Virus record (IMG/VR): IMGVR_UViG_3300033571_007861
Coordinates: 5,871-69,870 of that record
Direction: 5' to 3' (one strand)
Source: a virus
Length of the DNA: 64,000 bases
Part shown: one piece after another, positions 44,529 through 45,095 of the stretch
How the letters are laid out: each line of letters opens with the position of its first letter
How positions within the stretch are numbered: position 1 is the stretch's first letter
Translations under genes and position numbers: made by a program
Notes under the pieces: model-generated
What the model saw: the letters and a program-made list of their open reading frames with translations, nothing else
Database searches by the model: none
Told to the model about the DNA's origin: nothing

Positions 44529-45095
44529 ATGCCGTTGAAGCGTGGAAAATCTCAGGCTGCGATCAGTTCTAATATTAGCGAACTTGTTCACTCAGGCCGT
44601 CCGCAAAAGCAAGCCGTCGCCATCGCGCTTAACACGGCCCGTAAGGCTATGGAGCGTGGCGGGTCGCCTCACAACGACCCCAAGGTGTTTCATGGGCCTT
44701 TGAAAGCGCCTATCCCCGGTCGGACGGATCGGATGAAGGTTCACGTCGCCAGCGGAAGCTATGTGATCCCCGCTGACATTGTTTCGGGCATTGCTGAGGG
44801 AAACACTGAAGCCGGGTTTGAAATCATCAAGAAAATGATTGATGACAAAAAGTCTCAGGGTGGTCGCGTTGGTATGATTAGCAAGTATGGGTTAAACGGC
44901 AAATATCACGAGGCTAGAGGAAAGGTTCCTGTGATTGTTGCTGGTGGGGAATATATTCTTAGCCCAGAGGAAGTAGAGCTATTTGGCGATGGCGATTTAA
45001 ACGCTGGCCATAAGGTTTTGGACAAGTTTATTTTGTCTCAGAGAAACAAACTGATCAAAACTCTTAAAAAACTACCTCCGCCAGCAAAGGACTAA
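44529..45095 (+). CDS. small basic module fused through ERGG to a duplicated G(S/E)Y(V/I) domain
   Basis: [38 protein letters not shown] and [17 protein letters not shown]. Confidence 0.75.

Follow-up and report, generated by a model that had tools for sequence, protein, structure and literature searches.

In siphophages, the tape-measure proteins (TMPs) lie within the channel of the tail, from which they are expelled when the phage infects (PMC12617516; PMC10038345). The lambda TMP, gpH, is cleaved in its glycine-rich C-terminal region, just upstream of the sequence cassette that we treat below, and both the site and the catalyst are given as unknown in that account (PMC12617516). The fragment gpHC is retained in the particle, where residues 818-849 are bound to gpI, and residues ~690-817, which contain the cassette, are unresolved in the structure described there (PMC12617516). 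For T5, cleavage of pb2 after R1127 is reported (PMC10038345). In P22, incorporation of the ejection proteins is driven by their N-terminal parts, and the host protease OpdA trims gp7 to a mature N-end that reads KGGKG (PMC8402733). A further group is formed by the polyvalent proteins of phages, which are predicted to be packaged and injected and in which the domains ART-PolyVal, InPase, NUDIX and LPD23 are found (Iyer et al., 2017, PMC5512222).

Here we compare with these systems a short gene, ORF X, of a 69,870-bp virus genome with a CheckV completeness of 100%. The window, that is the whole stretch of 64,000 nucleotides that was analysed, corresponds to bases 5871-69870 of this record. Our main reading, to which we give about an even chance (roughly 0.5), is that X is a small internal, ejected virion protein of a podovirus-type phage, and that the same frame doubles as a cargo carrier in its relatives.

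ORF X and its gene neighbourhood

The sequence-only reading had quoted an open reading frame and a series of motifs at this locus, and translation returns all of them at the places indicated: MERGG at residues 41-45, PGRTD at 63-67, GNTEAG at 91-96, KSQGG at 108-112 and GDLNAG at 155-160, together with the duplicated G(S/E)Y(V/I) stretches at residues 73-85 and 137-149 (Table 1). No hydrophobic segment is present in the sequence of X. Across the 42 family members from which the unit profiles and the conservation were built, G64, R65, D67 and G96 are invariant in unit 1, as are G140, E141, R172 and P185 in unit 2, and D83, S86, N92, T93, H161 and D165 are nearly invariant.

Table 1. Features of ORF X and other genes of the window that are mentioned in the text; a single number is the position given for the gene.
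Feature	Position	Strand	Remarks
Large terminase	5254
Portal	11438
1422-aa multi-domain protein	13816..18084	+	right after portal; transglycosylase-like part, giant phrog_11358 part, 'cytidyltransferase' PHROG; DUF6321 near C-end; repeated 'DALRLA..GG' helices
Homing-endonuclease-type ORF	18085..18765
384-aa protein	21812..22966	+	basic, Pro- and GG-rich, no family; repeated RKAGG / KKGG motifs
Homing-endonuclease-type ORF	23069..23929
GroES/Cpn10-like gene	24115..24552	+	Pfam E 2.6e-8; phrog_3188 co-chaperonin; just upstream of capsid genes
Mu-gpT-like capsid protein	27373
Homing-endonuclease-type ORF	28353..29117
SU10-type adaptor	36708
Homing-endonuclease-type ORF	37450..38619
Adaptor protein	41343..42038	+	Pfam SU10_adaptor, E 6e-19
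Nozzle-like virion protein, 723 aa	41986..44157	+	phrog_3287, E 8.6e-42
120-aa ORF	44161..44523	+	no family; just upstream of X, always so in relatives
ORF X	44529..45095	+	188 aa; N-module, unit 1, linker, unit 2
N-module of X	44529..44663	+	residues 1-45; basic helix hairpin (helices 9-21, 26-42), MERGG at end
Unit 1 of X	44694..44855	+	residues 56-109; GRTD, beta-hairpin (SGSYV), PADIVS helix, GNTEAG loop, long helix
Linker of X	44856..44915	+	residues 110-129; unit 1 helix capped by KSQGG; low model confidence
Unit 2 of X	44916..45092	+	residues 130-188; beta-hairpin (AGGEY), helix, GDGDLNAGH loop, long C-terminal helix, LPPPAK end
298-aa ORF	45159..46055	+	between X and GNAT gene; no Pfam or PHROG match
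GNAT acetyltransferase	46043..46528	+	Pfam Acetyltransf_7 and Acetyltransf_1; usual neighbour downstream of X
Giant internal/ejection protein, 1328 aa	46540..50526	+	phrog_4287 'DNA ejection protein' on residues 15-368; Pfam SLT_3; many bipartite GG..[YK]A.GG motifs

The structural genes upstream in the window include the large terminase, the portal and a 1422-aa multi-domain protein, and further ones encode a Mu-gpT-like capsid protein and two adaptors of the SU10 type. The counterpart of the 723-aa nozzle-like protein in the record MW202675 is annotated as 'phage stabilization protein'. Downstream, the giant protein is followed by more large proteins, a tail fibre and an amidase. Judged by these family matches, the genes around X are a podovirus-type structural module.

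This order recurs in 80 related IMG/VR loci, in which an adaptor (~240 aa), a nozzle (~700-850 aa), an ORF of ~118 aa and sometimes one of ~430 aa precede X, and a GNAT-size ORF (~163 aa) and a giant protein of 1200-1800 aa come after it. Many of the loci are incomplete, and the class counts, namely 78 X, 75 nozzle, 66 GNAT-size and 32 giant proteins, have to be read accordingly. An ORF of 140-215 aa stands directly after X in 66 of the 78 loci. The core of the order, consisting of phrog_3287, a small or fibre-like ORF, a unit-bearing protein and phrog_4287, also exists in two cultured phages that are distantly related, namely Caulobacter phage GB2A and Synechococcus phage MinM2 (unit-bearing protein at 12429-13313), whose unit-bearing proteins possess a single unit each. 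Podophage ejection proteins are encoded directly downstream of the nozzle or tail-channel genes and upstream of the large ejection proteins, and this is where X is found; we take this position to be that of gp14 in T7 and of gp7 in P22.

Several other genes of the genome deserve mention. In 66 of 78 loci X is directly followed by the GNAT-size ORF, so the 298-aa ORF that separates the two genes in the window looks like a mobile insertion; its N-end resembles what we take to be a GIY-YIG motif. At least four ORFs of the homing-endonuclease type are scattered amid the structural genes, and of the four in Table 1 three match phrog_314 and one displays HNH_3 and Endonuclease_7. The 1422-aa protein looks, from its domain content, like a polyvalent, packaged protein. 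The ORF of 346 aa that comes after the GroES/Cpn10-like gene has no recognisable family. Within the first 6 kb of the genome (1260-3141, outside the window) there are an ORF resembling a fragment of the DNA polymerase III beta-clamp, an ArdA-like antirestriction protein and a DUF932 protein.

The frame of X and its relatives

Residues 1-43 of X match PHROG 2423 (E 1.7e-17, profile positions 1-43 of 52), and 19 of the 29 long members scanned likewise begin with this PHROG. Pfam DUF6496 (PF20106, gathering cut-off 24 bits) does not match X even at E<=10, whereas three relatives of the same architecture, P0339, P0343 and P0347, score 42-45 bits for it over residues 7-51. The N-module HMM of the X family matches these three in the second helix only. 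The N-module of X corresponds to PHROG 2423, its second helix being common to the relatives that score for DUF6496. By itself the module makes up proteins of 43-70 aa in many phages; in Acinetobacter phage HZY2308 it forms the N-terminus of a protein of 452 aa (HMM E 3e-20). This HZY2308 protein, which was labelled 'prohead core protein protease' by its depositors and whose gene stands just before those of the capsid, gives a match (E 5e-6) to 9b40_G, a solved 'gp24 scaffolding protein'. Given its presence on this scaffold-like protein, the module is a recurrent part of proteins acting within the prohead. A full-text literature search on DUF6496 found no paper.

The C-terminal part of X had been described as a duplicated domain. 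Since BLASTP yields no alignment between the two units, profile methods were required: hhalign aligns unit 1 (residues 56-112) with unit 2 (residues 130-188) over 44 columns with a probability of 97.4% and an E-value of 9.2e-12, and the unit HMMs cross-match (unit 2 HMM on the unit 1 domain, E 2e-06; unit 1 HMM on unit 2, E 0.0023). This profile evidence confirms that the units are true homologues, beyond chance, and the duplication stands. Further copies of the N-module or of the units are found in none of the six frames of the window.

The AF2 model of full-length X has a pLDDT of 82 and a pTM of 0.64. Modelled alone from 60 sequences, the C-domain reaches a pLDDT of 87.5 and a pTM of 0.79 and is predicted as a single compact unit, with a beta-hairpin, a short helix and a long helix in each of its two halves; the linker (residues 110-129) obtains a pLDDT of 51-56 in the full model and of 64-65 in the C-domain model. 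Foldseek against the PDB gives nothing at E<=1e-3, either for the full-length model or for the C-domain. Upon VIA alignment to 48,161 chains, the full model matches only through its N-terminal helix hairpin (Z<=5.7), a common arrangement that we discarded, and the C-domain attains a best Z of 3.5, with 0 chains at Z>=5 and no peptidase among the rows. A structure search of BFVD returns only family members and small N-module proteins. The best result of a sequence profile search of the PDB with X is HGPRT at E 0.28, with nothing below this value, and the ESM Atlas yields only unnamed viral clusters, the nearest named one, crAss_CARG1, scoring 0.84, below the trusted level.

Homologues of X are numerous. 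Near full length, 1083 are obtained at E<=1e-3 among 1167 candidates; those among the matches listed are 62-99% identical, carry no Pfam domain and are named 'hypothetical protein' only. HMMER over 1.84 billion cluster representatives (of 50%-identity clusters) finds 3062 matches at E<=1e-3 and 1554 at E<=1e-10. In the phage collection no cultured phage with a full X homologue was found, the one record with a coverage of at least 80% of X being MW202675, which is uncultured.

In order to describe the architecture we used a sample of 237 representatives, of which 142 stem from the HMMER pass and 95 from a search restricted to longer proteins, so that the sample leans to long forms. The order N-module, unit 1, unit 2 is seen in 211 of the 237 and the two units only in 24. 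Between the N-module and unit 1 the insert exceeds 100 aa in 132 of the 211, with a maximum of 1279 aa; between the units it does so in 15, and the end of unit 2 is 0-4 residues from the C-terminus in 210. The three conserved parts are placed invariably, and we therefore consider them a constant frame into which variable sequence is inserted.

A Pfam family above cut-off, namely ART-PolyVal, InPase, NUDIX or LPD23, is found in the insert of 12 of 104 long members, and DUF6098, DUF6782 and GP88 appear below or near the cut-off. The inserts of the other 92 have no Pfam name, so that the term 'enzymatic cargo' rests on a minority. When 29 long members were scanned against PHROGs, parts of giant families emerged that are annotated as 'DarB-like antirestriction', 'minor head protein' and 'virion structural protein', and a tape-measure PHROG in none of the 29. 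As far as these domain matches go, relatives are shown to use the frame as a carrier of ADP-ribosyltransferase, NUDIX, pyrophosphatase and other domains, which sit between the N-module and unit 1 or between the units. According to both Pfam and PHROG, X is the bare frame without cargo. Among its close cargo-less forms, identity across the 80 loci is still 45-73%, from which we conclude that selection acts on the frame itself. The description of the domain as standing alone is correct for this genome; in the wider family the frame usually contains inserted domains.

The likeness to polyvalent proteins lies in the ART-PolyVal, InPase, NUDIX and LPD23 domains that relatives of X carry amid late virion genes (PMC5512222), and X itself is encoded among such genes, between the nozzle and the giant ejection protein. 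There are also clear differences: X is without cargo and, being frame only, does not combine the two or more domains of disparate biochemical activity that polyvalent proteins have; its frame matches none of the Pfam LPD families; and it is MuF, not the X frame, that is described as anchoring polyvalent proteins in the virion (PMC5512222). Altogether, the X family is a very large, widespread and uncatalogued frame of probable phage internal proteins, with no Pfam model, name or solved relative.

A Gly-Gly cassette in tape-measure proteins

The resemblance to the C-terminus of lambda gpH that the sequence-only reading pointed out is confirmed, and the C-terminal processing it ascribed to this protein agrees with what is described for gpH (PMC12617516). 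Lambda gpH reads FATGG (733-737), HRGEFV (755-760) and YATGG (778-782). The direct link of X to gpH is weak (HMM 3-5 bits): both unit HMMs pick gpH 751-771 at 1-5 bits, and the unit-2 HMM finds residues 752-771 with a one-sequence E-value of 1.7e-3. Calculated in the same way, this HMM gives 4.7e-9, at two sites, for the TMP of Arthrobacter phage Faja and 2.4e-4 for that of Rhodococcus phage CoffeeBean, and no match at E<=1 for that of Salmonella phage Sasha. The homologues of gpH 700-853 among the matches listed are all 99-100% identical and yield no TMP profile, and the link was therefore made via gp065 of Caulobacter phage GB2A.

The protein gp065 is matched by the unit-2 HMM with E 3.4e-14 and by the unit-1 HMM with E 1.8e-10. 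Its unit-matching stretch in turn matches four PHROG families of the 'tail length tape measure protein' (E 8e-8 to 1e-5), and tblastn with gp065 matches 51 phage records, 40 of which bear a tape-measure label under the match; these phages infect Arthrobacter, Rhodococcus, Mycobacterium, Salmonella, Escherichia, Shewanella, Nitrincola and Stenotrophomonas, among others. Three of the matched genes are genuine TMPs by context, with tail assembly chaperones and minor tail proteins on their flanks. A hairpin-anchored alignment is gapless and reads [FY]-A-x-G-G, 4-6 residues, G-x-G-x-[ST]-D, x-I-x-A-x-L-x-x-G-[ESD]-[YF]-V and a helix, the GRTD of unit 1 corresponding to GTSD/GQSD in the TMPs. By this alignment the unit and the [FY/RK]-A-x-G-G upstream of it are a single cassette, which is also present in genuine siphophage TMPs. 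The protein gp065 itself (2953-4692 of the GB2A locus examined) is annotated as 'tail length tape measure protein' despite a podovirus-type gene order, in which a phrog_3287 nozzle-like gene precedes it and a phrog_4287 ejection protein follows. This label probably stems from the shared cassette alone.

Pfam does not cover the cassette in any of lambda gpH, Sasha, CoffeeBean, Faja, GB2A, MinM2 and MW202545; on gpH, Tape_meas_lam_C spans 627-701 and ends before the cassette, which TMP_2, TMP_3 and PhageMin_Tail also miss. The cassette is not always terminal in TMPs, since in CoffeeBean it is located ~600 residues before the end. Literature searches on strings of the FATGG/YATGG type returned only primer sequences among the matches listed, and those on a conserved glycine-rich C-terminal TMP motif nothing on the cassette among the matches listed.

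While the cassette is what X has in common with the C-terminal regions of siphophage TMPs (lambda gpH 733-782, Faja, CoffeeBean, Sasha), the two differ in most other respects. X comprises 188 aa, has no long helical, coiled-coil ruler and contains two cassettes with a longer Gly-rich loop and helix; its locus is podovirus-type and without tail assembly chaperones, whereas a TMP gene lies between chaperones and distal or minor tail proteins.

The motif is coupled to the units throughout the family. The string [RKFYH]-A-x-G-G occurs within 8 residues of the N-module end in 195 of the 211 members, and a GG pair precedes unit 1 by at most 35 residues in 203 and unit 2 by at most 30 residues in 194, which supports the earlier claim that an xxGG motif exists here. 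In the related loci, whose sequences are related and whose counts are not independent, the motif is observed 114 times in X against 4.4 expected from shuffles and 102 times in the giant ejection protein against 15.5, with no enrichment in the nozzle (2 versus 8.2), in adaptor-size proteins (1 versus 2.4) or in the GNAT protein (2 versus 1.9). From the family-wide placement and these counts we therefore conclude that the motif is genuine, a short element that belongs to the internal proteins in this lineage and forms part of the cassette. In the giant protein of the related loci it is bipartite, GG-[RL]-[VM]-..-[YK]-A-x-GG, and the giant protein of the window contains three near-identical copies of (E/D)GGR(V/I)(E/D)KA(E/G/D)GG, at residues ~495, 678 and 877. 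Within the window, GG pairs are enriched in the 1422-aa protein (z 2.6), the giant protein (z 3.7) and, most highly of all, the 384-aa protein (15 observed versus 6.5 expected, z 4.1), and not in X.

Possible roles of X

The reading of X as an internal, ejected protein is suggested by the position of its gene between nozzle and ejection genes, the cassette of TMPs, the N-module of prohead proteins, the terminal placement of the frame parts and the effector-type cargo of relatives. That X is present in the virion, docks there and is ejected is what we infer from this combination. The protein would start with a DUF6496-like helix hairpin of a kind that elsewhere stands on proteins working inside the prohead. 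Its two cassettes may fold into one compact C-terminal domain that holds X in the particle, most likely docked at the portal-nozzle channel. Ultimately, X would leave by way of the tail, either together with the DNA or before it, in the manner of TMPs and podophage ejection proteins. Similar to X, P22 gp7 and gp20 and T4 IPIII, with its capsid-targeting sequence, are small proteins that are encoded beside tail-channel genes and whose N-terminal part drives incorporation; the difference is that we found no sequence or fold likeness between them and X. Likewise, the PHROGs, PDB sequences and fold searches reveal no likeness to T7 gp14, P22 gp7 or a solved ejection protein. This negative result counts against our reading, and so do the small share of inserts that Pfam names, the bias of the sample to long forms, the restriction of full homologues in the phage collection to an uncultured record and the non-terminal cassette of CoffeeBean. 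The invariant polar residues, such as R65, D67, E141 and R172, count against it as well, as they are more than a plain docking module needs.

Alternatively, the cassette could act after ejection by binding a component of the host envelope, for example peptidoglycan, a periplasmic chaperone or an inner-membrane protein, and thereby help to build or place a trans-envelope conduit, X being an envelope-targeting adaptor for itself and its cargo. This agrees with the occurrence of the cassette in two protein classes that end up in the host envelope (PMC12617516) and with the Gly/Ala-rich hydrophobic N-terminal parts of single-unit relatives. ESM Atlas clusters with LysM or Hydrolase_2 align to the domain with TM 0.58 and 0.55, which we regard as a lead only. 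We nevertheless consider a role in the envelope unlikely, given that X has no hydrophobic segment, that no likeness to a known peptidoglycan- or chaperone-binding domain was seen, and that the hosts of phages with cassette TMPs span Actinobacteria and Proteobacteria, which argues against one conserved ligand other than peptidoglycan.

In T7, gp13 helps to load the ejection protein during assembly. X could similarly be an assembly factor that is absent from the mature particle and loads the giant ejection protein, or else a new enzyme whose fixed N- and C-terminal parts form one active site. The tight linkage of X to the genes for the giant protein and the GNAT protein would fit either role, as would its many invariant polar residues, and conserved polar residues are the feature by which some uncharacterised polyvalent domains are marked as likely enzymes (PMC5512222). 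This pair of roles appears quite unlikely to us: fusion to effector-type cargo makes little sense for a factor left behind in the producing cell, and conservation of the polar residues does not extend to single-unit relatives and TMPs.

According to the sequence-only reading, the two-unit domain binds or cleaves A-x-G-G, in cis in TMPs and in trans here on the 1422-aa, 384-aa and giant proteins, where it would replace a missing maturation protease. The premise that no canonical prohead protease can be recognised is correct: when 28, 7 and 29 ORFs from the window and the remaining 5.9 kb were scanned with Pfam, no peptidase family was named, and Peptidase_S78 has no match in the whole 69,870-bp record. 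The ORFs at 24565, 25623 and 26721, considered as prohead protease candidates, gave chance-level rows only at relaxed thresholds and were rejected. Further points in favour are that the motif lies in low-confidence linkers directly upstream of the units and is enriched, among the classes compared across loci, only in X and the giant internal protein, that the three proposed substrates are rich in GG, that the domain has many invariant polar residues, and that an unknown catalyst cuts lambda gpH just upstream of the cassette (PMC12617516). Pfam on X, however, returns only a chance PPR row at E<=10 and no peptidase family. The candidate catalytic residues S86 and H161 are kept neither in single-unit relatives nor in TMPs, both being replaced in the single-unit protein of GB2A, and D67 has no counterpart in gpH in the alignment. 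Moreover, X bears the motif itself, so it looks like a fellow motif carrier rather than a reader, and cleavage ahead of unit 2 would break the presumed enzyme in two. MERGG and KSQGG are devoid of the canonical Ala, and each directly follows, and so caps, a modelled helix. Precedents of processing involve other enzymes, such as OpdA in the case of P22 gp7 (PMC8402733). Prediction of a complex between the C-domain and a segment of the 1422-aa protein (residues 1250-1300, containing FADGG and LATGG) scored 0.00, which is no answer and weightless either way. We thus regard a reader or protease of A-x-G-G as improbable.

We would also place little credence in the broader idea that A-x-G-G and hairpin unit make up a self-contained maturation cassette, common to siphophage TMPs and podophage ejection proteins, in which the unit positions or catalyses a Gly-Gly cut just upstream. 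If this were true, it would explain the cleavage of lambda gpH to gpH* (PMC12617516), and the cut would free the N-module and the cargo from the X frame inside the particle.

Returning to X as an internal, ejected carrier protein, its family links two classes of protein that are pushed through phage tails, the TMPs and the podophage ejection proteins, via one uncatalogued cassette. This cassette is located where lambda gpH is cut, which makes the old question of gpH processing directly testable. The fixed N- and C-terminal parts of the frame, between which inserts are exchanged, look like a natural carrier for the delivery of enzymes into bacteria together with the phage genome.
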